From a virus, in the IMG/VR virus record IMGVR_UViG_3300007770_000007, positions 1-64,000 of that record: a stretch of DNA of 64,000 nt; one strand, written 5' to 3'. The translations under genes were made by a program, and so were the position numbers. The notes under the pieces were generated by a model. That model did no database searches. It was not told the origin of the DNA and was given only the letters and a program-made list of their open reading frames with translations. Shown here piece after piece: positions 19,496 through 59,609 of the stretch (within the stretch, counting starts at the first letter, position 1; each line of letters starts with the position of its first letter).

Positions 19496-19510
19496 CGGTA
19501 GAGCGCCTAT
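19496..19510 (+). promoter_or_regulatory. Putative late promoter CGGTA-N7-TAT
   Basis: Consensus match, intergenic. Confidence 0.65.
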
Positions 19511-19533: not shown

Positions 19534-20790
19534 GTGCCCATGCGCCCTGACCCAGCACGCATCGCGAAAGCCCATACCCGCAAGCAGCGGCTTGGTGCGT
19601 CTGCTGACGGCCAGAAGACGGCTTCCATGTCCCGCACTGCTGGTGAGGTTCGCTTCATCAAGGACCGTGGCGGTGACAAGAACGAGTGGGGTTGGGGAAG
19701 CCCTGGTCCCAGCGAGCGCCAAATCACGTCCGACTTCGTGTTTGATCCCAAGTACCTGAAGCCCCTGGCAACGACGATGCGCTCTGCGCTTATGGCTCTG
19801 GGCCATGTTTCGTCTGCTCACGACCGCTTTCTCAAGATCAAGAGCCGCGACGTTAGCCCTGACGGCAGCCTTGGCGGTAAGGGGTACATCCAGAAAGTTT
19901 CCGAGATGCGTCGGCAGTTGATGAACTGTTCCGAGGCCCTGTCTGCTTTCACCGACACCATCTATGACGAGATGGCAGCCCCTCACTGGGATCCTGCCGA
20001 GGACACTCTTGATCCGCGTGATCGGGATGAGGTTCGGGAGATCGTTGAGGAAGCCGAAGAAATCCGAGAGGACCCCACCGGCTGGGCCGACGAGGAAGAG
20101 GAAGACGAGTTCGGCAAGACCGCTGGTACTTTGTCCTATCGGGGGGACACCCCGCTCGATAAAGCGTATGCGATGACGGATCTTCTCATTGAGCTTGGAA
20201 AAGACCTCCCCACCGGATCTTCCCGAAGCCGGGAGTTCAAAGCAGTCAAGACTGCCCTCCGAAGCCTGGAGGGGTTTGTGAAGGGCATTGGTTCGGACAC
20301 TCCAAGGCCACGCGCAGCCCAGACGGTTCGCCGCAAGACGGCTGCATGGGCAGGCATCGACTACATGCGCGGAGATGACCGCTGGACTCTTGGCAAGGCG
20401 GTTGAGAGCCGTCGTGTTCGAGTCCCTTCTGGTTACGAGTTGGTTTCAGAGCCGGGAAAGGTCGTGCTTTTCAACTGGGGCGTCTTGGACGAGGGGGCCA
20501 CCGCAGAGTTTCGATTCATGCCCGATGGCACGAACATTCAGTTCATTATCGACGGGTATAACGACAAGCGTTCGCCCGGTTTGGTTCGGCACAGGTGGGT
20601 CGGCAACCCTGTCGATGACGCGGTCCTTATTGAAAAGCATATCAAGAAGTACATGCCTGCACTTGTGAAAGCAGTCTCGGACGACGAGGAGGACCTTCTT
20701 CGAGAAATCGAGAGGCGTCAGCGCATGGCAGGAATCCCCGGAAGCACCGCCCGTGTGCTTGCACGGTTTATGGAGGTGAACGGTGAGTAG
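19534..20790 (+). CDS. Modular putative head protein with PDPARIA tag and several KTA/RTA junctions
   Basis: AGGAG RBS; QKTAS, SRTAG, GKTAG, RKTAA; C-terminal TARVLARF. Confidence 0.75.
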   Translation: MPMRPDPARIAKAHTRKQRLGASADGQKTASMSRTAGEVRFIKDRGGDKNEWGWGSPGPSERQITSDFVFDPKYLKPLATTMRSALMALGHVSSAHDRFLKIKSRDVSPDGSLGGKGYIQKVSEMRRQLMNCSEALSAFTDTIYDEMAAPHWDPAEDTLDPRDRDEVREIVEEAEEIREDPTGWADEEEEDEFGKTAGTLSYRGDTPLDKAYAMTDLLIELGKDLPTGSSRSREFKAVKTALRSLEGFVKGIGSDTPRPRAAQTVRRKTAAWAGIDYMRGDDRWTLGKAVESRRVRVPSGYELVSEPGKVVLFNWGVLDEGATAEFRFMPDGTNIQFIIDGYNDKRSPGLVRHRWVGNPVDDAVLIEKHIKKYMPALVKAVSDDEEDLLREIERRQRMAGIPGSTARVLARFMEVNGE

Positions 20791-22945
20791 CGACAAGCCC
20801 CTCGATGTTTTGGGGGAGAGTCACCTTCCGGCTGACCTCCTCACCCCTACCCTTGGCTCCAACTACGGTATGCCTGGGTTTGAGGACATGCACTACAACC
20901 AAGGCGTCCTTGAAGGCGTCCTGGATCCCGAGTTGATGCCTCCTCCCGCGTTGCCTACTGGGCTGGAGCGCGTTGCTGAATCAGACATGGGCGTCCAGGA
21001 GATGATGAAGGAGGCCGAGTTGGCCGACCTGTCTTGGCTTGCCGATGCAGAACAAGACCCCGAGCGTCTCCCCCAGAACCCGGTTGATTTGGGAATCCCG
21101 GAACTTGAGGAAGCCTGGGGCGTTGATCGCCGCACTAACGGTATCCAGGTGTTCTCTACGGATCTTGCCCACGCCAAGGCGTCGGCCCCTGACACGCGCC
21201 TCCCCATGAATGAACGCGACTTGTCGGACATTCTGGTTACGGCCATGCGGCGCTCTGCGGCTGGTGAGGACATCAGCCTGATCATCGAACAGTCCCGAAT
21301 CGCCGCTGGCGTGGATGCAGATCGAATCGAGAAGGGGCTTTCCATTATCCGCAGCGAGCATGGTCTTGCAGGAAAGGTCTTTGTTCGTGCCGCCGCATAC
21401 CCCTCTTATGAAAAGGGGAAGTACCGCGACGAGATTCTGAAGGCCGCCAAGGGAGCCGAGTACATCCTTGTCTCGGGCCAGGACTTTGGTTCTACTCATA
21501 TCCAGAACGGTCGCTGCACTGTAACGGGCAAGAAGGCCGTCCTTGAGGTTCCTTGGAGCAAGGCCCTGTCTCACTACAAGCCTTTGTTGCTTGCTACGGG
21601 GCATCGGGTAGCTACGGACGTTCCAGCAAAGGATGCCCTCCGGGCCGCCTTTCTTGCACCGACCTCGTTGCCGGTTGCACGCGGTGAGCGTCTTCCTCGT
21701 TACAAGGCTGTATGCGATACGGTTTCTTCTGAAGAGGCTGCGGCAAGCCTGAAGGCCGCCGACAACACTCCCACGGAAGTCCAGGTGACAGACGCCGTGT
21801 TGAATCGACGGCTTCAACTCTGGAAGCAGAGCAATATGATTGACTCTGACTTGGTTGAGCAGATTCAGGCTGCCGATCTGACGCCGAACCAGAAGTTGGC
21901 CCGTGCTCTCGATGCGGTGAACGCTCGTCGTAACGGGACCTCTGGTTTCACGGGTGCCCCTAACACCGCCGTTGAGGCGGCCCAGAAGCGCCAGCATCTC
22001 CGTCTTGTCCGTAAGGACCACGCCAAAGAGGCTTCTGAAGCACGGCTCCGAGAAATCGTCGCTTTCCGAAACTCCGATGATCTGGACCAGCGCATCGCAA
22101 AGGTCATTGAGAAGATCGAGCAGGGCGCACGCGGTTCTTACCTCAAGTCCTTTATCAACAAGGTGATTCCGCAGAAGTTTGCTGCTGAAGCAGTGCGTCG
22201 GCTGCGTCCAACATTGGAAAAGACCGGTGCCCTCGAAGAAGAGAGCAAGGCCGCTTCCTATGATGGTCATGTTTACGAACGTGCCCCCGAGGTGCGGGAG
22301 GCTGTGGAGCTTTCTGATAAGGACGCGGCGCTCGCCAAGGCTGCTTCTGATGGTGATGTTTCTGTTTCGGAGATCAAGGGTGTCCTCAAGTGGGCCTCTC
22401 GTCATATGTCCCAAGGGTCTGCCGGAAGTGAGCTTACTGAACTGCTTCGTCATCGTTTCTCGAACCGGATCCTCAAGTCTGCTTCGGGATTGATTCAGAG
22501 TATTCGCGACACCCACGAGGGCGCTGCTGGATTTCTCTACGTTGACTCCGAAGCCTACATGGCTCCCACAGGGGTGAAAGGTTGCGAGACAGGTGCCCTT
22601 CGTCATCGATCCAACCAGCTACCTGCTGTCCTGGCCAGTTCCCGGTGCCAAGGGTGTACCCGAGTTTGCACACTTTCCTGCGGCACGCGGAAGTGCAGCA
22701 CCTACAACAAGGTGCTTCTGGAGCGTTCGGACCTTCCCGGAGACATCAAGTCCATCAAGAAGGCCAACATCACCGGGGCAGACCAGACGGATGCGGAAGG
22801 TATTGCTTCCCTGTTCGGCGCTACCTATGACCCGGATGAATACAACCTTCGCAGTGCGGATTTCGAGGACGAGGTAGAACTGGCCCCGCTCCCCGAAAAC
22901 GAGAAGATTGGTGAAATCGTCTTGGGTGGCTTCCTGTGGGAGTGA
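20783..22945 (+). CDS. Large hypothetical head-region protein with Cys-rich C-terminal region
   Basis: 720-aa ORF, coupled; C-terminal CQGC..VC..C..KC cluster; RVA/KAAS/KSAS motifs. Confidence 0.75.
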   Translation: MSSDKPLDVLGESHLPADLLTPTLGSNYGMPGFEDMHYNQGVLEGVLDPELMPPPALPTGLERVAESDMGVQEMMKEAELADLSWLADAEQDPERLPQNPVDLGIPELEEAWGVDRRTNGIQVFSTDLAHAKASAPDTRLPMNERDLSDILVTAMRRSAAGEDISLIIEQSRIAAGVDADRIEKGLSIIRSEHGLAGKVFVRAAAYPSYEKGKYRDEILKAAKGAEYILVSGQDFGSTHIQNGRCTVTGKKAVLEVPWSKALSHYKPLLLATGHRVATDVPAKDALRAAFLAPTSLPVARGERLPRYKAVCDTVSSEEAAASLKAADNTPTEVQVTDAVLNRRLQLWKQSNMIDSDLVEQIQAADLTPNQKLARALDAVNARRNGTSGFTGAPNTAVEAAQKRQHLRLVRKDHAKEASEARLREIVAFRNSDDLDQRIAKVIEKIEQGARGSYLKSFINKVIPQKFAAEAVRRLRPTLEKTGALEEESKAASYDGHVYERAPEVREAVELSDKDAALAKAASDGDVSVSEIKGVLKWASRHMSQGSAGSELTELLRHRFSNRILKSASGLIQSIRDTHEGAAGFLYVDSEAYMAPTGVKGCETGALRHRSNQLPAVLASSRCQGCTRVCTLSCGTRKCSTYNKVLLERSDLPGDIKSIKKANITGADQTDAEGIASLFGATYDPDEYNLRSADFEDEVELAPLPENEKIGEIVLGGFLWE

Positions 22946-22948
22946 CCT

Positions 22949-25900
22949 GTGGCTCCTCGTCACCCAAATCCTGAAGCGGTAGCGACACTGAAGCAGGCCG
23001 AGATGTCCACAGAGGCATCGGTGGCCTTGATGAAGTGGCTCTCCCGAGTCACCCGAAAGGCCGGGGTAGCGCAGCACGTCTACGTCGTCGGCGGTGCCGT
23101 CAGGAACTTCCTGCTTGAGAAGCCCATCAAGGACATAGACATGGTGGTGGATTCTCTCGCACTGCGCGGGAATCGTGACGCCGCTTGGGTGGCGCAGCAG
23201 GTAGCCCGTGCAATCCCCGCCCCTACCAAGGTGTGGACCGATAGCCTGATGGTTTCTCATATCACTGTGGAGGGTCCTTGGAGCCTTGACGGCCATCAGA
23301 TGGAGGGGGAGGAGATCGAGATCGTCAACGCTCGCTTGGAGGAGTACGCGGTTGACCCCCAGACAGGTGAGTACACCGGACACAAGCCGGAACGGGTCGA
23401 ACCCACCACGATGGAGATCGACATTTCTCGCCGCGAGTTCACGTTCAATACATTGATGTGGACGCTGCTGTCGCTCGCCAATGGCCCTGACAAGGCCGAA
23501 ATCATTGACCTCACGGGGTGTGGTCTAAAGGATCTAAAAAACCGCGAGATGCGCTGCCCTGGCGACCCCGACGAGACATTCGCGCAGGACCCCACCCGGA
23601 TCATCCGCACCATCAAGTTCGCCTTCAAGTACGGCATGAAGCTGCCGCCCGACGTGAAGGCAGCAGCTATCCGGCAGGCCAAGGGACTCAAACGCATCCC
23701 TTCCAAGACCCAGAGCATTCTTCAGAAGATTGTGTTGGATAACCCCCAATACAAGAAAGCCCTTGATGTCATGGATCGCCTTGGCGTGAACGCAGTCATC
23801 AAGGAGATAATGCTGGAGAACAAGCCCTTTCGGTCCTTTATGGAGAGCCACGCCAGAAAGAAGGGTGTTGCTTACATGCTTGATCTGATGGACGTGGGCA
23901 TCCCTGTAGGCGCTCCAATCTCTTTCCTTGATGCAGCGCAGCAGAAGCGTTTTCGGGAAGTAACGTCTGTTATGGATCGTGACGCCGCTTTGGATTTTTT
24001 GGGTATGTTGCGCCAGACGGGCAGTGCCTTGGGAGGGGCTACCCTGGCTTTGGCGCAAGAGCACGGCTATCGACAAAACGAAATGCGGGATTTTTCACCC
24101 GTCTTGAATAGGGTTGTGCGGGACCTTCTCCTCGAAGATCCTTCTTTGGCGGCTTCTTCATCGAGGCTCGTTCAGCGGGTTCGTCGGGAACTGCCTCGTC
24201 AACTGCCCCGACGGGCAAGCTCTGCTTTGGTTTACGGCACCCCTTCGGATGCCGACCGCGCAACTATGGAAGCCCCCACTCCCATATTTCCCCTCGCGTT
24301 CGAGGATTTTCACCTGATCCCGCCCCCCGACCAGGAGGAAACCCTTGAGGAGCTTCAAGACCTACGCGAACTCGCTGAAGAACAGCGCCCGGAAGCTGAA
24401 GAGTTCATCAAGGAGTCTGATGGGGAGATTCTCCATCTCTTTGATCGTCTGTGGCGCGATCATGGTGTCCGAGTCGATAAGAGGTGGATGCGAGAGATGG
24501 TCAAACAGGCGAAAACCCACGTCGCCAAGCTGAAGTGGCACTTCAATCGCCCACGTCCATATCAGGTAGGGGACGCTATCGGACAGCCCTTCGAGGCACT
24601 TGCTTCAGAAACGGCCCACTCCCCTTCGTACCCAAGCGGTCATGCCATCCAAGCGTTCCTCTTGGGAGAGGCATCAAGCCGCCTGGACCCCGAACATGCG
24701 GCTGAATACTTTGATTTGGTTGACCAGATTGCGTGGGGTCGGGCGCAAGCAGGCTACCACTGGCCCAGTGACATCCTCTACGGCGTTGAAGTTGCTGACC
24801 ATATGGCTGACTTCATGGATGTTCCCGAGGCTTGGAGTCCTCGCGTGGCGCGGATCATGGAGAGGAGGGCTTCACACGCCCTACAGAGGCATCGCTGGGC
24901 CAAGACGTTCACCGTCAACAAGGGCGATCCTATCTGGTACGGGAAGTATAAGAACAAGCGGGGGATCATTGATGGGTTCAGCACCAACGAGAAGGGTGAC
25001 GTGATCATCACCGTCGAACAGGTGCCTAATCCAACTGGCCGCAAGCAGCCCAAAGAGTTGAAGCTGTTCCGGGTGCGCCCCCGAGAGGTGGAGGAGGGCA
25101 AGGAGGCAAGCCCCCGTCGCGTCGTAGCCAAGTACAAGAGCAAGAAAGAGGTGCCCAAAGCAGACGGCAGCGGGACCACCACTGTTTACGAGTACGGCCC
25201 TCGGCAGGTAGCCCAACGCCATAAAGAAAAGGCCAAGAGATTGGAGGGGTTGAAGGCATCCCTTTCTGATTTGAGGGGTCAGGTTTCGGAGGACATGGTG
25301 TCAGACGACCCGGAGACGAGGCTTACGGCTTTGGCGGTGGCGTTGCTCGACAAGACTTATGAGCGCGTGGGTAACGAGAAATCCGCTGATGATCGTGGCC
25401 ATTTTGGAATCACGACCTTGCGGGTCAGCCACCTGGACCTGAAGGACAAGAAAGCCACCTTTGAGTACGTTGGCAAGAGCGGGGTGAAGCAGAAGAAGGT
25501 TGTGACGGACCCTCAAATCATTGAGGTTCTCAAAGCGGCAGTGGACGGAAAAGAGGGTGACGAGCGCATTCTGTGCGACGGCGATGATTGTCAGATTCGA
25601 GCGCGGCACGTCAACGGTTACCTCAAGCCGTTTGACATCACGGCCAAGGATCTTCGGGGGCTACATGCCAATGAGGAGATGCGTGTTCGGTTGAAGGATG
25701 TTCGCAAGAAGGGCGAGAGCCTTCCCCGAGGTCGAAAAGACCGAGACAAGATCCTAAAGGCAGAGTTCAAGGAAGCATTGGAGGCGGTTGCAGAGGCGGT
25801 GGGGCATCAGGCATCCACGCTCCGGTCCCAGTACCTCGTGCCAGGGCTGGAGGACTTCTACATGAAGGACGGGACTGTTATTGATGATTTGGCCAAGGCT

Positions 25901-28090
25901 GCCTCTCTGGGTCGGGATGCAGGCTTTCGTTCGTGGCTCATGGGGATCGTCAGTAAGTCCACGGTGGTCAAGGCGATCTTTGAGTGGGGTGAGCAAAAGC
26001 TGGACGGCCCAGCGGATCTTCCAGGAGGGTTGGTTCCCGAGGGCTACATCTGGAAGATGGGCGGTAGTTGGTACGCCAGCATTGGAGATGGTTTCCGGGT
26101 CCAGAAATACAGGAGCGAGCGCGAAGCTACCCGAGGGGTTCGGTTCTCGCGTGTGGCTCATACGCTTCTCCTGAAGCAAGCCACGAAGTCTGAAGCAGAG
26201 CGTGAAGAGGAAGAGGCCCAGCGACTTGTGCGTAAGTCCCCCAAGAAAAAGCCGCCTCGGGTGGACCTGGAACGCCGTCATGTCGAGGATTCGGATTCCG
26301 AAAGGGATCCCGATAAAGAGCAAGATCGGAAGGATACGTCCCACAACTTCAAGGACATCGCCGCCTCGATGGCCGCTCGGCGTGTAGCTTTTCGGTACAG
26401 GAAGGCCGAGGAGTTTACGGAGCAAGAGTGGAAGACGTATAAATCCAAGCACCCAGGGGCCAATAAGGACGACCACACGATCCGGTCAATAGGTGAGGAC
26501 GACGAGGATGGGGGTGCGTCCGAGGATACCTGGGAAGAACTTTCCTCTGATGAGCAAATGGATCTCTTGGCAGAGGGCGCAGGGACCGAGTTTGGGAAGA
26601 TTCAGGACGAATACCCCAACACCACGATCACTGAAGAAGACGTCCAGGACATGATGATGGAGCAAGCTGCGGAAGGGGTGGACCCTTTCAGCCCAGCAGC
26701 GGCCAAGGAACGCAAGGACCAGATCAAGAGCCAAGCGGCGATGGATTCGGCGTCCAACAACCTCGTCCTCCTTACCCAGTCTTTTGGAGGTGACGGGTCC
26801 GAGAAGGTTGAATCAGCCCTTCAAGGCTTGAAGGGTGATGACCGGGCAACATTCCTTGAATCATATGAGAAGGCGCAGGAAACCGCCAAGGCGCGGGACT
26901 CTGCGGTTCGAGGCGACCCTGCCGCCCGTAAAGAGTTGCTCACCCTTGCCGAAAGCCTTGATGCGGTTCTGGCCTCCATCAAGGACGGAAACCCAGGCGT
27001 GATGGGAGAGGTGCTGGCGCTATTCGAGTATGCCTCGAAGGTTCTGTTCAATCCTTCCCTCATAGACCCCGCCAACCCAGTCTCCGATAGCCAGGGTGTC
27101 GTGACGGGCGACGACCTCGCGAAGTCGAAAAAGCGCAGCGCAACTCATGCTGCGAATGCCTTTGAACGCTTCAAGGAGGCAAGCCCCGAGGAACGCGCCC
27201 ATTCCCGTGAAGCACTCGCCCAGCAGTTGGAGGGTCTTCCTGACGGGTCTGCCGCGAAGGTGGAGCTTCAAGGTGTTGTTTCAGGACTGCTTGCCGCGTC
27301 AGCTTTGCATGACGGGGAAGAGGCTACTGGCGTCGGACCTACGATGCAGCTTCTCGTCAAAGCACTCGATAAGGCTGGGGCAGCAGGTCCCGATGGGGCC
27401 TTGTTTGCACCGGTTGGGGGCGACCTTTCCACTCCAGAGGCGCAGGAGGGCATCCGGGCCGCCCTCACTGACGTGCTTGACGAAGACTGGGGAAGTTTGG
27501 TCGAGGAGGATGACCCCATCTTCCCTATCGCGGAGTTGTTGAGTGATGAATCCGCTGATTTGGGGATGGAGGATAAGCAGTTTCTTCGCACAATCATTGC
27601 TGATTATTTGACGGATGAAATCACGGTGGTGGAAGAGGCGACTCGCGAGGATCATCAAAAGGATGAGCCTACTACGGGCGACGTGAAGCAGAGCTTGAAG
27701 GAGCGCCGGAAGAAGGACAAGTCTCGGATGACGTCTGCCCTTCGGGATGCGAAAGGTCAGTTCTTGGACCAATCCGCTATTGACGAGGCGCAGGGTTCTG
27801 GGGCGAAGCAGGATGACGAAGACGCCGATACTTCTGCCGAGTCCGAGGGTGCAGGGTCGGAAGACACAGAAGAAAAGAAGGAGGAGGGTGCAGAGCGGAA
27901 GAAGGGATTCTTCGCCGCCCTTCTTGATGCCATCTTCCCTGATTCGAGAAAGGATAAATGGCAAGCCATCGTTGAAGGCGACGAGCCTGAATCTTCGACG
28001 GAAAAGACAGCCCTTGATCGTTATGATTTGCAGCCGTGGGACACTTCCAAACTTCCAACGGGAAACTCTGTCCCGTTAGATGCGCGGTAA
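22949..28090 (+). CDS. 1713-aa polyprotein: CCA/poly(A)-polymerase-type nucleotidyltransferase + PAP2 phosphatase + SH3-like domain + DNA topoisomerase IB + unknown helical domains
   Basis: VVGGAVRN..DID, RREFTFN, DPTRIIR; KWHFNRPRP, SYPSGH, R...GYHWPSD; RVGNE, GKSG, AKDLR, GH..TLRSQY. Confidence 0.88.
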   Translation: MAPRHPNPEAVATLKQAEMSTEASVALMKWLSRVTRKAGVAQHVYVVGGAVRNFLLEKPIKDIDMVVDSLALRGNRDAAWVAQQVARAIPAPTKVWTDSLMVSHITVEGPWSLDGHQMEGEEIEIVNARLEEYAVDPQTGEYTGHKPERVEPTTMEIDISRREFTFNTLMWTLLSLANGPDKAEIIDLTGCGLKDLKNREMRCPGDPDETFAQDPTRIIRTIKFAFKYGMKLPPDVKAAAIRQAKGLKRIPSKTQSILQKIVLDNPQYKKALDVMDRLGVNAVIKEIMLENKPFRSFMESHARKKGVAYMLDLMDVGIPVGAPISFLDAAQQKRFREVTSVMDRDAALDFLGMLRQTGSALGGATLALAQEHGYRQNEMRDFSPVLNRVVRDLLLEDPSLAASSSRLVQRVRRELPRQLPRRASSALVYGTPSDADRATMEAPTPIFPLAFEDFHLIPPPDQEETLEELQDLRELAEEQRPEAEEFIKESDGEILHLFDRLWRDHGVRVDKRWMREMVKQAKTHVAKLKWHFNRPRPYQVGDAIGQPFEALASETAHSPSYPSGHAIQAFLLGEASSRLDPEHAAEYFDLVDQIAWGRAQAGYHWPSDILYGVEVADHMADFMDVPEAWSPRVARIMERRASHALQRHRWAKTFTVNKGDPIWYGKYKNKRGIIDGFSTNEKGDVIITVEQVPNPTGRKQPKELKLFRVRPREVEEGKEASPRRVVAKYKSKKEVPKADGSGTTTVYEYGPRQVAQRHKEKAKRLEGLKASLSDLRGQVSEDMVSDDPETRLTALAVALLDKTYERVGNEKSADDRGHFGITTLRVSHLDLKDKKATFEYVGKSGVKQKKVVTDPQIIEVLKAAVDGKEGDERILCDGDDCQIRARHVNGYLKPFDITAKDLRGLHANEEMRVRLKDVRKKGESLPRGRKDRDKILKAEFKEALEAVAEAVGHQASTLRSQYLVPGLEDFYMKDGTVIDDLAKAASLGRDAGFRSWLMGIVSKSTVVKAIFEWGEQKLDGPADLPGGLVPEGYIWKMGGSWYASIGDGFRVQKYRSEREATRGVRFSRVAHTLLLKQATKSEAEREEEEAQRLVRKSPKKKPPRVDLERRHVEDSDSERDPDKEQDRKDTSHNFKDIAASMAARRVAFRYRKAEEFTEQEWKTYKSKHPGANKDDHTIRSIGEDDEDGGASEDTWEELSSDEQMDLLAEGAGTEFGKIQDEYPNTTITEEDVQDMMMEQAAEGVDPFSPAAAKERKDQIKSQAAMDSASNNLVLLTQSFGGDGSEKVESALQGLKGDDRATFLESYEKAQETAKARDSAVRGDPAARKELLTLAESLDAVLASIKDGNPGVMGEVLALFEYASKVLFNPSLIDPANPVSDSQGVVTGDDLAKSKKRSATHAANAFERFKEASPEERAHSREALAQQLEGLPDGSAAKVELQGVVSGLLAASALHDGEEATGVGPTMQLLVKALDKAGAAGPDGALFAPVGGDLSTPEAQEGIRAALTDVLDEDWGSLVEEDDPIFPIAELLSDESADLGMEDKQFLRTIIADYLTDEITVVEEATREDHQKDEPTTGDVKQSLKERRKKDKSRMTSALRDAKGQFLDQSAIDEAQGSGAKQDDEDADTSAESEGAGSEDTEEKKEEGAERKKGFFAALLDAIFPDSRKDKWQAIVEGDEPESSTEKTALDRYDLQPWDTSKLPTGNSVPLDAR

Positions 28091-28099
28091 CGTTCCTAT
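28085..28099 (+). promoter_or_regulatory. Putative late promoter CGGTA-N7-TAT
   Basis: Consensus match overlapping the polyprotein stop codon. Confidence 0.65.
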
Positions 28100-28142
28100 A
28101 CCTTCACCCTATGAGCGAGACTTGTGCTCGTGGAATCCCTGT

Positions 28143-28178
28143 CCTTACAGGACCCCCTTACAGGACCCCCTTACTGGA
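28143..28178 (+). repeat. 13-bp tandem repeat CCTTACAGGACCC x2 plus partial third copy
   Basis: Directly visible; third copy supplies the GGAG RBS. Confidence 0.85.
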
Positions 28179-28186
28179 GAATCGTC

Positions 28187-29248
28187 ATGGCCGACAACCT
28201 TACCCGGAGCGGGGCACGGGCCTTCACCGAGACCCTTGACCGTATCGCTACCGCCGTTCAACACAATGCAGCCCTTTTGGGCCTCCCCTCGAACATTGCC
28301 ACCGACTTCGCCTTCCGCTGCGATTTGGTTAGCGATGCGGTGGAGAAGCAAGCGGCGGCCAACTTCCCTTTGAAGCAAGCTGACTTCAACGCCGATGAGA
28401 TTGGCGAAGAGGTTCCGGGTCCTTTGGTTGATGATCCTCCCAATGCACAGATCGATGAACACTTCACCCAAGAGAAGTTCCACGAGCTTACCGAGATGGC
28501 AGACGCCGAAGAAGCCGCCGACAAGCTGGCTTCTCTGATGGAAGAGGCAGACCGCGTGATGGAAGCCGCGATGCCCACCATCAACGTCCAAGGATTCCGG
28601 GGCTTTACGGATCAGGTTCGCCGTTTAGACGAACTCTCCACCGAAATCGAGATGCTTGAAGCAGAGCTTGAGGCCGCCACCAGCGGCCTTTTGTCGCGCA
28701 AGAAGGATCTCGACAAGGAGATGAAGGCCGCCGTTGAGGTTCTCAAGAAAGACTACAAGGAGAATCTTTCGGCACAGGGCAACGTCATCATCGAGCGCAA
28801 GACCGCTCTGGTGGACGCCCAGGCAAGGTTGGCAGTCGTTGCTCGCAGGCGCACTCCGCAGAAGGTCCGGGATGAACTCCTGGCCGCTCTTGCCGAGGAG
28901 TACGGTGAGAGTATTCGTCAGCGCCTTCCTGAACTGGAGAACGCACTGCGCGAAGAAAAGAAGACTATGGCTGTCGCCTTCAAGGGATTCGAGCTTGAGA
29001 TGCGTACCGCGTCCGTTGCTGACAAGAACGCTGGTGTCCTCGACAAGCTGGTTCGCTTCCGCGAATGGCTCGTTGGTGGCCTGAAGCGCATTGTCGGTAT
29101 GGCAGAGCAGGCCACTCGTCTTTTCAAGGGCGTGGGCCGCAAGATGGAGAAGGACACCTCCATGTTCCTGCGGGAACTCGACCAGTTCGAGTCCGAGATG
29201 GGCAAGGCTGCCACCGAAGTCCACGGTTTCGATTTCTTTTCCGAGTAG
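28187..29248 (+). CDS. Coiled-coil putative head/internal protein
   Basis: GGAG RBS before ATG 28187; KQA, KLAS, RTAS, KNAG, KAAT motifs. Confidence 0.75.
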   Translation: MADNLTRSGARAFTETLDRIATAVQHNAALLGLPSNIATDFAFRCDLVSDAVEKQAAANFPLKQADFNADEIGEEVPGPLVDDPPNAQIDEHFTQEKFHELTEMADAEEAADKLASLMEEADRVMEAAMPTINVQGFRGFTDQVRRLDELSTEIEMLEAELEAATSGLLSRKKDLDKEMKAAVEVLKKDYKENLSAQGNVIIERKTALVDAQARLAVVARRRTPQKVRDELLAALAEEYGESIRQRLPELENALREEKKTMAVAFKGFELEMRTASVADKNAGVLDKLVRFREWLVGGLKRIVGMAEQATRLFKGVGRKMEKDTSMFLRELDQFESEMGKAATEVHGFDFFSE

Positions 29249-29826: not shown

Positions 29827-31239
29827 ATGGCTTTTGCCAAGTACGCCAAGGCGATGGTCCTCCATCCTCGTGTCAATGCTGCCTCTTGGGGCGGTATGCA
29901 GCGTACTGCGTCTTCTACCCCCACCCGCGACCTCTCCGCGCAAGCCACCACGATTCTCGGCACTCCTTTTAGCCCGGACCAGTACCTCCTTACCCACTGC
30001 ACTATTGTGGGATCGGTTGAGGTAGAGAAGGTAGCGGGCGCGAAACTCGGGAACGTCAAGATCGGCAGCCGTACCATCAACCGTAAGTACGCCGACTACT
30101 ACATCTCCCCTGAATCATCCGCGATGGTGAACAACAACGGGGATTCCTGGAGCCGGGATGTCTTGCTGAAGTCTTACCGGACTTTCATCGGCTCCCACAA
30201 CTTCCAGGAGCATGTCCAGATTGAGGAGCAGTCGAAGGGCCGCATCATTGATGCCGTAGCCCGTGACGTTGGCTCTTCGGTTTATATCGACATCCTCGTT
30301 GCCACTGACCGAAAGCACGCAGCACTTGTCCAGGACATTGAATCCGGCAAGATTGCAACGCTCTCTATGGGCTGCACCACGGATTTCACCATCTGCACGA
30401 AGTGCGGTCATGTTGCCGCTGATGAGACTGAACTTTGCGACCATATTCGGTATGCGAAGCTCAACACTTTCATGGATGGCGGCGGCAAGAAGCGCGTGAT
30501 TGCAGAGCTTTGCGGCCATCCCGACTACGATGAGACGGGTGGCGTGACGTTTATCGAGGCGTCTTGGGTAGCGACCCCGGCCTTTTCCGGCGCTGTCATG
30601 CGGAACATTTTGAGTCCTGCGGAGGCCACCTCCCAGACCCAGAAGTTGGAACAGGTCCTCTCCGCGCCCCCAGAGGCATGGTCGCAGGACGCGATTGCGA
30701 AGGCAGCCTCTACGGTACGCGCCTTTGGTTTTGGCGAGGATGATGAAAAGCCCGCCGAAGAGGCACCCGCTGATTCAGGGAAGCCTTTCACTGACATCGA
30801 AGACCAAATCTACGACATGGTGAAGAAGCGCGTTCAAGAGCGCCTTCAGAAAGACATGGCTGATTCCAACGTGGAAGAGCAACTGGATAACCCAGGTCCT
30901 CCGTCCACTTGGCCCAACGACACCCTTCAAAAAGAGGGCAAGCTCCACCAGTACAAGACTGCTATTCAGACGGTTGTGCGGGTGGCGTCCTCTGACGTAG
31001 CCCTCGTTGACGGGGTTGCTGCGGTCAATGATTCCTACGGAGTCAAAGTTGCACGGGACATTTACCGTGCGGTTTTGGCTGCGGGAACCCCTTCGAGCCA
31101 TCCTGACTTGAAGTCCTTTCTTGCTGCTCTTGGCTCCGCTACGGGTCGCAAGATGTCCTCTGCCGAAGTTCGGGTAGCAATCCGAGTCGGCTATCTGCTT
31201 TCCCGCCGGGCGAGCAAAACCACTCAATCCGTTACCTGA
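29827..31239 (+). CDS. Prohead maturation protease (assemblin/HK97-type serine protease fold)
   Basis: NNNGDSW, EH..SKGRIIDA, LSMGC..CTKCG, FIEASWVATPAF; directly upstream of scaffold and capsid genes. Confidence 0.8.
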   Translation: MAFAKYAKAMVLHPRVNAASWGGMQRTASSTPTRDLSAQATTILGTPFSPDQYLLTHCTIVGSVEVEKVAGAKLGNVKIGSRTINRKYADYYISPESSAMVNNNGDSWSRDVLLKSYRTFIGSHNFQEHVQIEEQSKGRIIDAVARDVGSSVYIDILVATDRKHAALVQDIESGKIATLSMGCTTDFTICTKCGHVAADETELCDHIRYAKLNTFMDGGGKKRVIAELCGHPDYDETGGVTFIEASWVATPAFSGAVMRNILSPAEATSQTQKLEQVLSAPPEAWSQDAIAKAASTVRAFGFGEDDEKPAEEAPADSGKPFTDIEDQIYDMVKKRVQERLQKDMADSNVEEQLDNPGPPSTWPNDTLQKEGKLHQYKTAIQTVVRVASSDVALVDGVAAVNDSYGVKVARDIYRAVLAAGTPSSHPDLKSFLAALGSATGRKMSSAEVRVAIRVGYLLSRRASKTTQSVT

Positions 31240-31258
31240 ATACACAAGGAGAATAGTC

Positions 31259-32581
31259 ATGAGTCGCGAACGAATGACCTGGACCGATGACAAGCAGGCT
31301 TCTGAAGCCCCTGCAACCCCGTCCGACAGCGAGGGAGCCGCAAGCCCCGCCGCCAAGGAAGACCCCGCACCAGAGGCTTATGCCAAGGGCGACACTGAAG
31401 AGTGGGCCGAAGGCAAGGACGAGTCTCCTGTGGTGGAAAGCGAAGCACCTGCTGTGCCCAGCGAGAGGCAGGCTGCTGCCATGCTTGAGCGCAAGGCTGC
31501 CAAGTGCATCCGTCTTGCAACTGCCATGCTTGGTGATGGCGCTTCTGTAGAGGCCATCGAAGACCAAGCTCTCGCCTTTATGGATATGGACGACCGTGCC
31601 CTCCATTCTTCCCTTTCTCGCCTTGGCGAAGATGCAGAGAAGAAGAAAGAGGACGAGGAAGGCGCAGAGGCAGAGGCAGCAAAGACCATCCAAGAGGACA
31701 AGGAGCACGCTGCTGAAGCCAAGAAGGCCGATGATTCTGCTGACGAGGCCATCGACAAGGATGATGCCAAGGCTGCTGAAGAGGATCTCGCCAAGGAAGC
31801 TACCGACAAGGAAGCTGTCGAGAACCGTCTTGCCAAGATCGAGGAAGCCTTGAGCATCCTTGTGGGAAAGAAGGCCGAGGATGACAGCGGCGACGAGGCT
31901 ATGGACGACGACAAGAAGGCTTCGGGCCACTTGGACGAAGACGAAGCCATGCTCGAAGCCATGCTTGCCGAGGAAGGCATGATGGAGAAGCCCGAGGCTA
32001 TGGAAGACCCCGAGGCGATGCTTGAGGAGATGCTTGCTGAAGCAGAAGCCGAGGCTATGGCCGAGGAAGTTGCCGAGGCCATGTCCGCAGACCCCGGTGT
32101 TCCCGGTGAGGAAGCCCTCTACGAAGATGGCGAGTCGCATGATCCGGGCGACCATGATCCCGACGGCTTCGAGGAGTCGATGGTGGTGGACGAGGCTGTC
32201 ATGATGGCAGATCCGGTTGTCGATGATCCGATGGGCGTCATGGCTCGCGACCTGGACGAAAAGGATAGCGAGATGCTCGCAGTTCTCTTCGGCAAGCAGG
32301 CTGACGACGATGACGACGAGGACAAGGACGAAAAGGAAGACCACGACGAGGGTGCCATCAAGGATGATGAGGACCACATCGAGTCCCTTGAGGAAGACAA
32401 GGACGAGGAAGAAAAGGACCTCAAGAAAGAGGAAAAGAAGGCGGCCCGTAAGCCCCAGCCTAAGAAGGCCAGCAAGGGCGCGAAGCGTCTTGGCGGTGTC
32501 TCCAAGTCGGCAGGCAACGAGGTCGGCAACCTTTCCCAGCTTTGGGAGTCTGCTCCCGACGTGAGCCGGTTCTTCAACTAA
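31259..32581 (+). CDS. Acidic capsid scaffolding protein
   Basis: Extremely D/E/A/K-rich, between protease and capsid genes; many K-x-A motifs. Confidence 0.75.
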   Translation: MSRERMTWTDDKQASEAPATPSDSEGAASPAAKEDPAPEAYAKGDTEEWAEGKDESPVVESEAPAVPSERQAAAMLERKAAKCIRLATAMLGDGASVEAIEDQALAFMDMDDRALHSSLSRLGEDAEKKKEDEEGAEAEAAKTIQEDKEHAAEAKKADDSADEAIDKDDAKAAEEDLAKEATDKEAVENRLAKIEEALSILVGKKAEDDSGDEAMDDDKKASGHLDEDEAMLEAMLAEEGMMEKPEAMEDPEAMLEEMLAEAEAEAMAEEVAEAMSADPGVPGEEALYEDGESHDPGDHDPDGFEESMVVDEAVMMADPVVDDPMGVMARDLDEKDSEMLAVLFGKQADDDDDEDKDEKEDHDEGAIKDDEDHIESLEEDKDEEEKDLKKEEKKAARKPQPKKASKGAKRLGGVSKSAGNEVGNLSQLWESAPDVSRFFN

Positions 32582-32593
32582 TCCCAACCCTTT

Positions 32594-32629
32594 CCCCCAG
32601 GCGTGGAGGGCAACTTTCACGCCTGGGGG
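32594..32629 (+). terminator. Strong hairpin after scaffold gene (terminator or mRNA stabiliser)
   Basis: CCCCCAGGCGTG/CACGCCTGGGGG stem; no clean U-tract. Confidence 0.5.
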
Positions 32630-32793
32630 GTCCAAGGTTTCTCCCTAACGGGACAAAAGGGACCTTCGGTTCAATAGATACTTGATACACCGTCTTATAG
32701 TTAGACGGTTTGCGTCTGGACTTGAAGGCATACGGCCCGAGAGTCTTTCATCACACCCCTTCCTGTAAACAGGGAGCACAGTCAGGAGAAATC

Positions 32794-33474: not shown

Positions 33475-34347
33475 ATGTCAGTTGCAAACTCTGTGAAGCA
33501 GAAGCTGATCAGCGACTACATCGGTACTCCCCAGGGACGTGCCAAGCTCGCTGCATCAATGACTCAACCCCTGCGGCTTCGTCGCGACTACATGGCAGTG
33601 GGTCGTAAGACCTTCCTTGTCGAGCAGTTGCCCGACGGTGCCCTGCCGATTTACGACAAAGATCCTGATGTTACGGCATATGTGGTCGGTGAAGAAGGTG
33701 AGAACATTCTTGCCATCACCAAGCCTCGCCGCGTCATCTTTCCTTTGTTCGAGATCGCGTCCAACCCGGAGATCCCCCTGACCCAGATCAAGGAGCGTCG
33801 TTTCGACCTCATTGAGCGGGCACAGGATCTCGCCCGTGCCCAGATTCAGGCTGCTGAAGATGAGCGCGTGTTCGCCGTCCTTGACGCTATCGCAACCACT
33901 GGTTTCGACAGCATCGCTGGTGGTACGAACCCCGACACCCCCGTTGTTGCACCGATTAGCGGAGCCGTCCTTGCTGACGCCTTCTCGCTCATCGAGCGCC
34001 ACGACCTCCGGGTTGCTCGCGTGTTCATGAACGCTCGCGACTACGCTGACCTGCGTAAGTTTGGCCGGGACATCTTGGACATCGAAACGCAGCGCGAACT
34101 GCTGAAGACCGGCCTTATGGGCACCCTCTGGGGCGCACAGGTCATCGTCAGCCGCCTTGTCCCCGTGGGCACGGTGTATGTTTGCTGCGAGCCAGAGATG
34201 TTTGGACGTATCCCCGTCCGTACCGAACTGACCGTTCTTTCCGCAGACGATCCGAAGGCTCGCACCATCGGCTTCTCCTGCTTCGAGAACCTGGGTCTTG
34301 GTGCCTACAACCCCCGTGGTTTGGCCCGACTGACCATCACTCGGTAG
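33475..34347 (+). CDS. Major capsid protein (compact HK97 fold)
   Basis: Position after protease/scaffold/decoration; GRAKLAASMTQPLR..DY..GRK..LPDGALP.YDKD, AAEDERVF, GTLWGAQVIVS; strong RBS; terminator behind. Confidence 0.85.
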   Translation: MSVANSVKQKLISDYIGTPQGRAKLAASMTQPLRLRRDYMAVGRKTFLVEQLPDGALPIYDKDPDVTAYVVGEEGENILAITKPRRVIFPLFEIASNPEIPLTQIKERRFDLIERAQDLARAQIQAAEDERVFAVLDAIATTGFDSIAGGTNPDTPVVAPISGAVLADAFSLIERHDLRVARVFMNARDYADLRKFGRDILDIETQRELLKTGLMGTLWGAQVIVSRLVPVGTVYVCCEPEMFGRIPVRTELTVLSADDPKARTIGFSCFENLGLGAYNPRGLARLTITR

Positions 34348-34672: not shown

Positions 34673-35278
34673 ATGTCTGATACCCCCGCCCGTCACCGCT
34701 TGATTCGCCTCGCCTCTACGTTGCCCAAGGGCAGCACGGAGCGTGGAGAGATCCTCTCCATTCTTGCCGCTGACGCTGACCACCTGAAGAAGCACCAGTT
34801 CGACAGCGAGAACAACCCCAATCCCAAGGGGAATGACAAGGACGGTGACGGCGAGACTAACGAGCCGAGTCCCGTGAAGGACAAGAAGGCTGCCCCTTGT
34901 GATGACGCCCCCGCTCCCTTCAAAGAGCAGTGCTTGAAGAAGGTTGAAGAAGGGAAGAAGAATGAGGACAAGAAGGAAGCCGGTGGTGGCTGCGACTCTC
35001 CCAAACTTCCCGACGCCCTGAAGGCACAGTGCAAGGAGAAGGAGAAGGAAGGCGACAAAGAGGCCAAGGAAAAGTACCCCTGGGATGATTGTATTGCCGA
35101 TCAGATGAAGGAATACGGCAGCAAGGAAGTTGCTGAAAAGGTTTGCGGTAAGATCCGGGCCGAGAGCCAGGGCCTCAAGTCCGCTGCTGATTTCCGCAGA
35201 AGCCTGATTCGGATGGCTGCCGAGATGCCCAAGGGCGATGCTTCCCGTAAGAAGCTCCTCACACTTCTCAAGTCCTAA
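34673..35278 (+). CDS. Charged modular protein with terminal LIR(L/M)A repeats and Cys-pair mini-modules; putative internal head protein
   Basis: LIRLASTLPKG..R.EIL at the N-terminus and LIRMAAEMPKG..RKKLL at the C-terminus; KKAA/KKEA/DKEA/LKSA junctions. Confidence 0.75.
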   Translation: MSDTPARHRLIRLASTLPKGSTERGEILSILAADADHLKKHQFDSENNPNPKGNDKDGDGETNEPSPVKDKKAAPCDDAPAPFKEQCLKKVEEGKKNEDKKEAGGGCDSPKLPDALKAQCKEKEKEGDKEAKEKYPWDDCIADQMKEYGSKEVAEKVCGKIRAESQGLKSAADFRRSLIRMAAEMPKGDASRKKLLTLLKS

Positions 35279-35907
35279 TGATTCAGCCATCGCCTTCAAG
35301 AGTAGCTGCCCGTTATGCGGCATCCCCTCCCACGCTTCGGCAAGTGAAAGCCCTTTTGAGGCGCACGGGAATCGAAGGTGAGTTGTCAGGGCGTGGGCGC
35401 GATTGGTCCGTGGAGTTGCCTGATAGCCGCACTTCTGACGCCTTCCAGAAAGCCTACCAAAAGGCTTTTCGTGCTGGGGTTGGGGGTTACCGTACTGGCT
35501 ACGGTGCCTGGGTTATGCGCCCAGGCTATGGCGCAGACCCCCATGACTTCAACGACCCTGCTTCCCGGCACCACTACGCCGCGCTCCCAGAGGAGCCTGT
35601 GGTCGGAGACATTCTCTATTCCAACTGGGGATATGACCAGACCAACATCGACTACTACCAGATCATCAAGGCGACCCCAAAGCAGGTCGTCATAAAGCAG
35701 CTTCTCAAGAAGGTTGTGAGCACGGGCCGCACTGATGAGAAGGTCATCCCCCTCAAGGGGAAGTTCGATCCAAGAGGGAAGGCTCTCCGTAGAAAGTGGC
35801 GTCCCGGCTACAGCGACGGCATTGCTGTGAGCATCAACTCCTACTCCAGCGCGTATAGTTGGGATGGTCGTCCTAAAAGCCAAACAATGGCCGGGTTCGG
35901 CCACTGA
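35278..35907 (+). CDS. Two-module protein with N-terminal PSPSRVAARY tag
   Basis: Coupled start; second module GDILYSNWGYDQTNIDYYQ. Confidence 0.75.
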   Translation: MIQPSPSRVAARYAASPPTLRQVKALLRRTGIEGELSGRGRDWSVELPDSRTSDAFQKAYQKAFRAGVGGYRTGYGAWVMRPGYGADPHDFNDPASRHHYAALPEEPVVGDILYSNWGYDQTNIDYYQIIKATPKQVVIKQLLKKVVSTGRTDEKVIPLKGKFDPRGKALRRKWRPGYSDGIAVSINSYSSAYSWDGRPKSQTMAGFGH

Positions 35908-35928: not shown

Positions 35929-36564
35929 GTGAGCACACTGGAGGGTGAGGTGCTCATAGCAGTTTCAGGGACTATCGGTGTCGGCAAATCCACTCTCTGC
36001 GCGAGGCTTGCTGGCGAGACCGGTTTTACCCTGATTCCAGAGCCGGTGTCCACGAACCCCTACCTCGCTGACTTCTACATAGATCCGACGAGATGGGCCT
36101 TTACAGCCCAGATATTCATGATCACGGATCGCTTCCGTCGGCAGCAGGAGATCACTGATAGCAGTGAGGGCTATCTTTTGGATCGGTGTCTTCACGAGGA
36201 TTGGGTATTTGCCCAAGTTCTCTACGAAATGGAACACCTGTCTGAACGAGAGTGGGAGACGTACAAAGGTCTTCACCGCTCTCTTATTGAGGTGGTCCCG
36301 GTTCCAGATGCCGTTGTCTACTTGCGGGTTCCCCCCGAGGAGGCTCTCCAGCGCATCGGTTCCAGAGGCAGAGCTTCCGAGATGGCGATTTCCTTGGACT
36401 ACCTCTCCCATCTTCATCGCGTGTATGAGGAGTGGGCTACCCGTATGTCTACCATCACAAGGGTGGTCGCTATGGATTGGCGTTCCTACGGGGATGTAGC
36501 CGAGGTTGTTGGTCGTCTGCCTACACCAAAGAGGGCGGTATCCTCAAATCAGACGTTTTCATGA
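35929..36564 (+). CDS. Deoxynucleoside kinase (dNK family)
   Basis: IAVSGTIGVGKST P-loop, EPV, DR..ED, YLRVPPE, RGR. Confidence 0.9.
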   Translation: MSTLEGEVLIAVSGTIGVGKSTLCARLAGETGFTLIPEPVSTNPYLADFYIDPTRWAFTAQIFMITDRFRRQQEITDSSEGYLLDRCLHEDWVFAQVLYEMEHLSEREWETYKGLHRSLIEVVPVPDAVVYLRVPPEEALQRIGSRGRASEMAISLDYLSHLHRVYEEWATRMSTITRVVAMDWRSYGDVAEVVGRLPTPKRAVSSNQTFS

Positions 36565-46496: not shown

Positions 46497-46511
46497 CGGT
46501 ACATTCCCGAT
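46497..46511 (+). promoter_or_regulatory. Putative late promoter CGGTA-N7-GAT
   Basis: Consensus match, intergenic. Confidence 0.65.
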
Positions 46512-46562
46512 AAAGCCCGGATGGTTGAGTGCCGTCTGGGCTTTATTGCTTCTGGAGGCTTT

Positions 46563-59594: not shown

Positions 59595-59609
59595 ATCAGC
59601 GGTCTACCG
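59595..59609 (-). promoter_or_regulatory. Putative late promoter CGGTA-N7-GAT
   Basis: Reverse-strand consensus match. Confidence 0.6.

Follow-up and report, generated by a model that had tools for sequence, protein, structure and literature searches.

In phage T4, the internal proteins and Alt carry a capsid-targeting sequence that is cut by the prohead protease gp21, and the head and inner-body proteins of giant phages are reportedly processed by a protease of the phiKZ gp175 type. Poxviruses carry a topoisomerase IB in the virion; the cargo-loading peptides of encapsulins, which are usually C-terminal, bind the shell protein directly; and there are reportedly 'Swiss-army-knife' RNA repair proteins, represented in Pfam by HAD_SAK_1. 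Iyer et al. 2017 (PMC5512222), who also cite Alt and work on the 'Swiss-army-knife' proteins, propose for the polyvalent proteins of phages and conjugative elements that these are packed in capsids and injected along with the DNA, an internal metallopeptidase cutting them into units. Here we analyze a protein of 1713 amino acids (aa) encoded at 22949-28090 (+ strand) of the window, that is, the first 64 kb (positions 1 to 64,000) of the 77,335-bp IMG/VR virus record IMGVR_UViG_3300007770_000007. CheckV puts this record at ~17% completeness, so that the record covers only part of a phage genome several hundred kb long. The protein is a bead-on-a-string chain of self-contained modules on flexible linkers and very probably represents polyvalent-type modular cargo of the head module. 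With moderate confidence, we interpret it as polyvalent cargo of a marine huge phage, the modules of which, marked by a short recurring peptide (hereafter the tag), would be loaded into the prohead, trimmed by the prohead protease and leave together with the DNA.

A sequence-only reading of this DNA had called such delivery of ready-made enzymes a strategy rarely described for tailed phages. This does not hold, because multi-enzyme injected proteins are a described class, the polyvalent proteins (PMC5512222). Compared with that text, the class is not new; the Topo IB (topoisomerase IB), the RNA-repair content and the tag of the present family are. The same reading had described a single uninterrupted open reading frame (ORF) that joins a nucleotidyltransferase, a PAP2-type phosphatase and a Topo IB, and here it holds up: the frame is open for 1713 codons, all three enzymes have Pfam matches and intact catalytic residues, and the proposed enzyme coordinates were correct to a few tens of bases. 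One polypeptide thereby combines three enzymes, each from a different superfamily, with four non-enzymatic modules. A protein search yielded at least 172 family members, on contigs of up to 438 kb, and a scan of IMG/VR at least 143 confirmed loci; taken together, the contigs reach 512 kb and include the published 485-kb genome LR745208.1. Coverage counts below were taken over 119 relatives, and gene-order and tag counts over 80 related IMG/VR loci. The layout of the gene is as follows.

22949-28090, + strand: whole ORF, 1713 aa plus stop; open frame, identical protein (P0002) on record, spanned by a 47-kb Logan contig
22949-22999, + strand: leader, aa 1-17, ending ..EAVATLKQA before E; predicted local distance difference test (pLDDT) below 50, short helix at 8-16
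23000-24199, + strand: class II nucleotidyltransferase of the CCA-adding / poly(A) polymerase type (full head-neck-body-tail), aa 18-417; Pfam, PHROG, PDB and Foldseek matches
24158-24226, + strand: junction 1, helix 404-414, then coil PRQLPRRAS before S; pLDDT below 50 at 421-426, coverage falling from 56 to 27 relatives
24227-24823, + strand: soluble PAP2 / class-A acid phosphatase, aa 427-625; PF01569, alignment to 7f18
24836-24910, + strand: junction 2, tag SPRVARIMERRAS (helix 632-646) with disorder on either side; conserved in P0003
24911-25069, + strand: small beta domain ('SH3-like'), aa 655-707; predicted strands
25070-25135, + strand: junction 3, disordered linker and tag SPRRVVAKY; pLDDT below 50 at 708-729
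25136-25906, + strand: type IB topoisomerase, aa 730-986, ending ..LAKAA before S; PF01028, catalytic pentad, Foldseek matches
25925-26143, + strand: small beta domain U1, aa 993-1065; predicted to have five strands and a helix
26144-26176, + strand: junction 4, tag FSRVAHTLLLKQA before T; A/G before T[KL][ST], starts of separate genes
26177-26371, + strand: conserved charged segment (CHG); in 103 of the 119 relatives
26372-26401, + strand: junction 5, tag AARRVAFRYRKA before E; ends of CHG in relatives, gene split in L003
26402-28087, + strand: C-terminal region with an all-alpha core (~aa 1195-1610), an acidic disordered tail and the end YDLQPW (28022-28039)

The frame begins with a GTG 3 nt past the upstream stop, preceded by GGGAG 6 nt ahead; M19 is an alternative start chosen by some gene callers, and the K-x-A-E-M motif of the leader is kept in P0003 and P0010. 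The first enzyme matches Pfam PolyA_pol (PF01743; aa 44-202, E 2.7e-14), the tRNA nucleotidyltransferase family phrog_2244 of PHROGs and, by sequence, the PDB entries 1miv and 4wby, and contains motif A as GGAVRN..DID (aa 48-64). Foldseek aligned 340-468 columns of its model to the full-length CCA-adding enzymes 6qy6, 3h38 and 1miv, which covers the complete head-neck-body-tail architecture. The canonical motifs B (RRDxxxN) and D (EDxxR), the nucleotide-selecting template of class II nucleotidyltransferases, read RREFTFN and QDPTR here, each one residue off, so that the enzyme may add CCA, add A or have another specificity. The PAP2 module (PF01569; aa 527-613, E 1e-8) aligns almost end to end with 7f18, a soluble acid phosphatase of 217 aa, and retains the three signature motifs, K-x6-RP, PSGH and R-x5-H-x3-D, in the form of KWHFNRPRP, YPSGH and GRAQAGYHWPSD, which are invariant in the alignment of P0001, P0003 and P0010. 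In the topoisomerase (Pfam Topoisom_I, PF01028; aa 756-957, E 4e-29), alignment to the TopIB of D. radiodurans (2f4q) identifies the catalytic pentad as R806, K843, R903, H953 and Y962, each of these residues being at least 90% conserved among 49 aligned family members, and the AlphaFold model has the two-domain small TopIB fold, with bacterial and variola enzymes as its matches (Foldseek: 3m4a, 2h7f, 2f4q; E ~1e-9, TMt 0.54-0.61, 256-277 columns). The poxvirus TopIB (2h7f, 3igc) shares this small type IB fold and the pentad, including the histidine, but comes from a eukaryotic virus and stands alone as a protein of 314 aa, ~19% identical, with neither tag nor polyprotein context. Judging from the intact catalytic residues, all three enzymes look active.

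The sequence-only reading had further named an SH3/KOW-like domain. A small five-strand beta domain is indeed predicted at ~aa 655-707 (AlphaFold strands at 661-663, 671-679, 685-691 and 703-705), and 'SH3-like' serves for it only as a putative label. The domain is mobile, being present in 69 of the 119 relatives and located elsewhere in the chain in P0010.

The same modules emerge when the relatives are laid along the protein. Coverage in BLAST searches falls into blocks, with steps at aa 415-425, 620-650, 715-725, 985-990, 1070-1076 and 1145-1151.

aa 20-415: nucleotidyltransferase, 55 of 119 relatives
aa 425-620: PAP2, 28 of 119
aa 650-715: small domain, 69 of 119
aa 725-985: Topo IB, 114 of 119
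aa 990-1070: second small domain (U1), 22 of 119
aa 1076-1145: charged segment, 103 of 119
aa 1150-1600: C-terminal region, 60-76 of 119

For residues 1-1200, AlphaFold predicts confident domains (mean pLDDT 79) with a predicted template-modelling score (pTM) of 0.43. The stretches with pLDDT below 50 lie at 1-17, 421-426, 626-630, 643-654 and 708-729 in the first half and at 988-992, 1072-1081, 1093-1141 and 1146-1154 in the second, and all of these are proposed joints except 1093-1141, the disordered center of the charged segment. Natural gene ends in relatives provide a third measure, as separate genes start or end at the joints and carry the tag at their own termini. Stand-alone CHG genes start 3-5 residues before TK[ST], with M[DE]V[LIT][AGS]TK[ST], where the window protein reads ..LKQA before TKS; stand-alone Topo IB genes (349-356 aa) start with M..LRVAARYKSKK; and the L003 gene is split, with a copy of the tag on either side, at the joint of CHG and the C-terminal region. 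The three independent measures agree, and the junctions are real boundaries. The junction strings pointed out earlier are all present (LKQA, RRAS, which occurs twice, SPRRVVAKY, KAAS, SRVAHTLLLKQA, AARRVAFRYRKA and EKTA), the proposal that each enzyme is bracketed by junction or tag motifs is in line with the homology-module borders, the low-pLDDT linkers and the gene ends, and the tight inter-domain packing that would have buried the junctions is not seen, given the pTM of 0.43 and the disordered linkers.

The tag has the consensus L-x-x-R-V-A-A-R-[F/Y/W]-L-x-A when the copies at Topo IB are left out. Its core pattern, R[VIL][AV][AS][RK][YFW], occurs 110 times in the 490,737 residues of the ORFs at related loci, a ~60-fold enrichment over the null expectation (20 shuffles; mean 1.7, maximum 4). 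It is found mostly at N-termini or at module joints, with 39 of the 59 matches in proteins shorter than 900 aa lying within the first 40 residues. AlphaFold predicts the tag peptides to be short helices; each linker carries one such helix, amphipathic and basic, after which a small residue usually precedes S, T or E. The codons of the tag copies differ synonymously, which argues for selection on the peptide rather than for a repeat in the DNA. Looser forms of the tag occur in the window genes at 19534 and 16145, and two separate late proteins bear it.

35278-35907, + strand: separate late protein with an N-terminal tag (MIQPSPSRVAARY..; PSPSRVAARY)
46521-48371, + strand: separate late protein with the tag PSPARVAARY at aa 20-29; promoter-like motif at 46497

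Both proteins are candidates for further cargo or effectors. The former shows a weak ribosome-modulation-factor-like match (E 0.0036), and the latter weak DUF4258 (toxin-like) and SWIM matches. Directly after the first, still in the structural region, lies a dNK deoxynucleoside kinase gene (35929-36564; Pfam, E 1.9e-49). The C-terminus of the prohead protease, ..AEVRVAIRVGYLLSRRAS.., was considered as a further tag and rejected, the orthologues having a conserved helix of a different pattern there.

An artefact, in the form of a chimeric assembly, read-through of several genes or a DNA-level repeat mistaken for a peptide, would account for a protein of this kind, and the record is a linear, metagenome-derived contig that is ~17% complete. 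The independent data leave this explanation highly improbable, and we reject it. The window DNA is also present in marine and seawater metagenome runs from two studies, and Logan contigs from both cover the polyprotein gene with one single-nucleotide polymorphism (SNP) and no indels or joints; one of these, of 47 kb, covers 22000-29000 with a single SNP (A>G at 26502), no indels, no joints and no loose ends. The full-length architecture recurs in independent samples, in the 1704-aa orthologue P0003 (69% identity) and in L004, an IMG/VR locus from another sample (1708 aa), and the gene is not a misassembly; the synonymous differences among the tag copies argue against the DNA-level repeat. The A>G polymorphism at 26502 appears in the contigs of all four metagenome runs compared, and the assemblies of two runs break there.

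Across the 80 loci, the modules follow one order, namely nucleotidyltransferase, PAP2, small domain, Topo IB, U1, CHG, C-terminal region and the product of the next gene, g28124, and their fusion and splitting vary from phage to phage; in L055, L064 and L007/L008, for example, the chain extends into the g28124 homologue (TOPO-CHG-CT-g28124). The constant core of the family consists of Topo IB and CHG, usually with the all-alpha C-terminal region. The other positions behave as variable slots: in relatives, they are occupied by RNA ligase, HAD_SAK_1, 2H and tRNA-ligase-CPD phosphoesterases, and also by NUDIX, ChaC, GNAT, carbonic anhydrase, InPase, ART-PolyVal and inteins. Of the 119 relatives, 28 have a zincin-like HExxH module, and ART-PolyVal was found in P0110 and InPase in P0065; the window protein contains no zincin-like metallopeptidase (MPTase), ART-PolyVal, InPase or LPDs and, in Pfam searches, no RNA ligase domain. 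In the phage collection, neither near-identity nor protein searches turned up a close relative of the full-length protein; the only matches were to separate enzyme domains and to the Topo IB of LR745208.1. A recurrent module that begins with (R)VAIIHI(N/D)NATDG...GL.SSLTLYE follows Topo IB in P0097, P0093, P0113, P0022, P0111 and others, and several cargo polyproteins include intein and LAGLIDADG domains (P0018, P0030, P0043, P0055).

The contents of the slots bear on the statement, made from the window alone, that the enzymes share no pathway. This is contradicted by the relatives, which join the same nucleotidyltransferase to RNA ligase, HAD_SAK_1, 2H and tRNA-ligase-CPD phosphoesterases; P0011, for instance, has RNA_ligase, PolyA_pol, HAD_SAK_1 and 2H on one chain. 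By their domain content, these partners make up a set for RNA-end repair, the end-healing enzymes of which share their slot with PAP2. Relatives of the P0011 type are similar in this respect to the 'Swiss-army-knife' RNA repair proteins, which reportedly combine RNA ligase with end-healing enzymes on one chain; the window protein differs in having the nucleotidyltransferase and PAP2 only, with no ligase, welded to a topoisomerase and to a head-module chassis.

The comparison with polyvalent proteins, for which we draw on the text of PMC5512222, reveals both likenesses and differences. In both cases, unrelated enzymatic domains are placed on one polypeptide that is encoded beside virion genes, and relatives of the window protein carry the signature domains ART-PolyVal, InPase and zincin-like HExxH. 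By contrast, term searches of that text found neither topoisomerase IB among the domains nor the tag; 2H domains are never combined there with RNA ligases, whereas the two occur together in the phage proteins analyzed here; and pol-beta nucleotidyltransferases are placed there only in proteins of conjugative elements, whereas a class II nucleotidyltransferase is part of phage proteins here. Finally, processing is assigned there to an internal MPTase, compared to tag-bearing linkers and a neighboring prohead protease in the present case.

CHG, of ~70 aa, has the pattern TKSxxExEEEE..RLVRxSPKKKPPRxDLER..DPD..KD.S.N.KD with an invariant P-K-x-K-P-P-R-x-D, and is mostly disordered in the AlphaFold model; with a tag on each side, it is the best conserved non-enzymatic piece of the family (103/119), and in relatives it ends with ..NYKD-AA-RVAxR[YFW]L. 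The C-terminal region is modelled with pLDDT 78.5 and pTM 0.65, and searches of the ESM Atlas, Foldseek PDB, BFVD and VIA-align wide gave no usable fold match for its domain, the best VIA-align result (Z 6.8, a designed helical bundle) being at the noise level for helical proteins. A Y/F-D-x-P-W-like end is present in 28 of the 119 relatives.

The placement of the gene among head genes, also proposed from the window alone, is confirmed both here and in 42-66 related loci, with the protease, the scaffold-like protein and the major capsid protein (MCP) downstream. The order is g28124, g29258, protease, scaffold-like protein, g32710 and MCP.

19496-19510, + strand: copy CGGTA-N7-TAT of the promoter-like motif, heading the unit g19534 - g20783 - polyprotein
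28085-28099, + strand: copy of the motif, overlapping the polyprotein stop and heading g28124
28124-29248, + strand: g28124, next in the module series; fused to the polyprotein C-terminus in some relatives
29827-31239, + strand: prohead (head maturation) protease; phrog_18299, E 1.2e-14
31259-32581, + strand: scaffold-like protein, 440 aa; composition and position, from the translation only
33475-34347, + strand: major capsid protein, HK97 type; phrog_2522, E 1.8e-52
19496, 28085, 34625, 41614, 46497, 48984, 49750 and 53911 (+ strand) and 59595-59609 (- strand): all copies of the motif

This order recurs in 42-66 of the 80 loci (protease in 65, g29258 in 66, MCP in at least 42), and LR745208.1 encodes a 508-aa protein of Topo IB and CHG in the same place. 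The protease is related to phage G gp19 (hhalign probability 99.3%); a profile sequence search found no solved relative of it. The product of 31259-32581 is extremely acidic, Ala/Glu/Asp-rich, helical and of low complexity and ends in a basic tail; its gene stands between the protease and capsid genes, and it looks like a scaffolding protein; a longer ORF on the minus strand that overlaps it (31232-32635) is probably spurious. The capsid protein is 88% identical to that of LR745208.1, 49% to that of Tunturiibacter phage Tunturi_5 and 39.7% to phage G gp27, which places the phage in a clade related to phage G; across the related loci, it is 88-98% identical, as against only 35-78% for the protease and other head proteins, an indication of unusually strong constraint. 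Phage G and Tunturi_5, both relatives in culture, have the MCP and the protease in common with the present phage but none of the cargo modules.

The polyprotein unit shares a promoter-like motif, CGGTA-N7-KAT, with other late units. The window contains 9 copies compared to 0.95 expected, a number that none of 100 shuffles reached, and every copy sits just upstream of a gene start, which makes the motif a candidate late promoter. Immediately upstream of the polyprotein, 20783-22945 encodes a conserved 720-aa protein that always precedes the cargo genes and has invariant C601, H608, C622, C625 and C638, with no match in Pfam, PHROG, PDB or the Atlas. A 'portal' label for this protein was dropped as no relation to the phage G portal was found. 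An actin-family protein (Pfam Volactin, E 1.1e-74) is encoded at 58012-59022, among structural genes, and several orthologues of the protease reach 900-1474 aa compared to the usual ~480 (L014 14103-18527, L019 14725-18786, L057 15059-19174), which suggests that they carry large insertions.

Late expression alongside head genes would also suit enzymes that never enter the particle. Under this explanation, which we consider improbable, the protein would be a late cytoplasmic enzyme set, with Topo IB relieving the packaging torsion generated by the terminase, the nucleotidyltransferase maturing phage tRNAs, and the tag bringing proteins together or to an assembly site instead of into the capsid. 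CCA-adding enzymes are indeed common in jumbo phages, where they serve the phage's own tRNA pools, and a position in the head module indicates timing rather than location. However, the invariant order and the fusion to a non-enzymatic chassis among head genes would be odd for housekeeping enzymes, the chains of relatives carry domains typical of injected effectors (ART-PolyVal, InPase, zincin), and the 64-kb window contains no tRNA gene, although only ~17% of the genome is sampled. A predicted complex of the capsid protein with the tag-CHG-tag segment scored 0.00 in a run without controls and counts neither for nor against binding.

Encapsidation and cleavage differ in how probable they appear. 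Gene position, the tags and analogy suggest both; for encapsidation of the window protein, we put the chances at somewhat better than even, and for cleavage at the joints a little short of even. The residue before T[KL][ST] is informative here: in all 66 relatives in which a regular expression detected this site, it is Ala (57) or Gly (9), whatever lies upstream, and Topo IB modules end with L-x-K-x-(A/G) ahead of the next module. If the polyvalent-cargo interpretation is correct, the tag would address each module to the inside of the assembling prohead, in the manner of the T4 capsid-targeting sequence, and the prohead protease, encoded 1.7 kb downstream, would trim or separate the modules between x-x-(A/G) and S/T/E. 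The enzymes would then exit the capsid together with the DNA. After entry, the nucleotidyltransferase and the phosphatase would heal 3' ends of RNA or tRNA damaged by host defence nucleases, a role proposed because relatives put a full RNA-repair kit in the same slots, and Topo IB, independent of both ATP and Mg, would relax the genome, of 400-500 kb, as it is ejected or first transcribed. CHG and the C-terminal domain would constitute the invariant non-enzymatic chassis, perhaps as an anchor to the capsid, the scaffold or the DNA.

Several points weigh against this scheme. The tag with which nearly all Topo IB modules start, RVAA[KR][YF][KQ]xKK, runs on into conserved enzyme sequence with no conserved small-residue site, which makes removal of this copy improbable. 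Whereas 28 of the 119 relatives have a peptidase module, the window protein lacks one, so that any cutting would depend on a separate protease. Because the 720-aa upstream protein is not recognizably a portal, the analogy with portal-adjacent cargo rests only on the position relative to the protease, scaffold and MCP genes. That PAP2 acts in RNA end-healing is guessed from the shared slot, and acid phosphatases of class A tend to be non-specific. No cultured phage with the protein was found. Among the sequencing runs that carry the window DNA, no RNA runs are listed, and the particle proteome of phage G (PMC12484599) is without this protein, which phage G lacks.

The first two of these points would also fit a chain that is packaged and injected uncut, entering as one 190-kDa protein like the virion RNA polymerase of N4, with the tags acting only as docking or spacer helices. 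The persistence of fusions in divergent lineages is compatible with this possibility as well, and polyvalent proteins that travel unprocessed are cited by Iyer et al. We nevertheless regard it as unlikely, because A or G always precedes T[KL][ST], even in stand-alone CHG genes that keep a leader of 3-5 residues, because many relatives encode the modules as separate genes, so that function needs no linkage, and because the disordered linkers are exposed to the co-encoded prohead protease.

Loading with maturation, as in the favored polyvalent-cargo interpretation, has a parallel in the internal proteins and Alt of T4, in which otherwise unrelated proteins are directed to the prohead core by a short peptide at their N-terminus and enzymes are delivered with the DNA. 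Here too a short peptide is shared by unrelated head-module proteins, with no sequence relation to the T4 signal; the T4 peptide ends in the protease site L/I-x-E, compared to the candidate x-x-(A/G) before S, T or E, and the present tags, known from sequence alone, are also internal and C-terminal and join polyprotein modules. The phiKZ-type phages, likewise huge, reportedly mature many head-internal proteins at a shared short motif by means of a prohead protease; they differ in the motif (S/A/G-x-E), in the capsid lineage, which is phage G-like here with an MCP of 290 aa, and in that the processed proteins are mostly non-enzymatic, the virion RNA polymerase excepted. With encapsulins, the likeness lies in a short conserved peptide on diverse enzymes and in loading into an HK97-fold shell; their peptide is usually C-terminal and binds the shell, in contrast to tags at N-termini or module joints.

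A literature search on topoisomerase IB in huge, jumbo or mega phages returned nothing relevant, and no paper describing the family was found; the 'moraphage' paper concerns another lineage and is not applicable. In phage G, gp13 (L085 11937-12203) starts with MKRLISKTAARYAAS, like the window tag ..SRVAARYAAS, and further small head-module proteins have K/R-R-L-I/K-K-like N-termini. A cultured phage may here possess the same addressing peptide in a diverged form. That the tag is a portable capsid-loading address and maturation site across a large clade of huge phages related to phage G is a proposal that we make only tentatively, as one that could well prove wrong.

If the cargo interpretation is correct, huge phages bring into the cell a ready-made set for RNA and tRNA end repair together with a DNA swivel that needs no energy supply. 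How they withstand tRNA-cutting and other abortive defences in the first minutes, and how a genome of half a megabase is handled on entry, would thereby be explained. The tag would then be the first sequence-level addressing code for the capsids of huge phages, such that the cargo of uncultured phages could be listed from sequence alone, and would offer a handle for loading foreign proteins into capsids. Should the tag indeed be a loading address, any tagged protein or module would enter the prohead and be set free by the prohead protease, and genes could freely fuse and split at the tags. The capsid would, in that case, be a programmable container for an RNA-repair kit, a topoisomerase and other effectors, delivered before genes are expressed.

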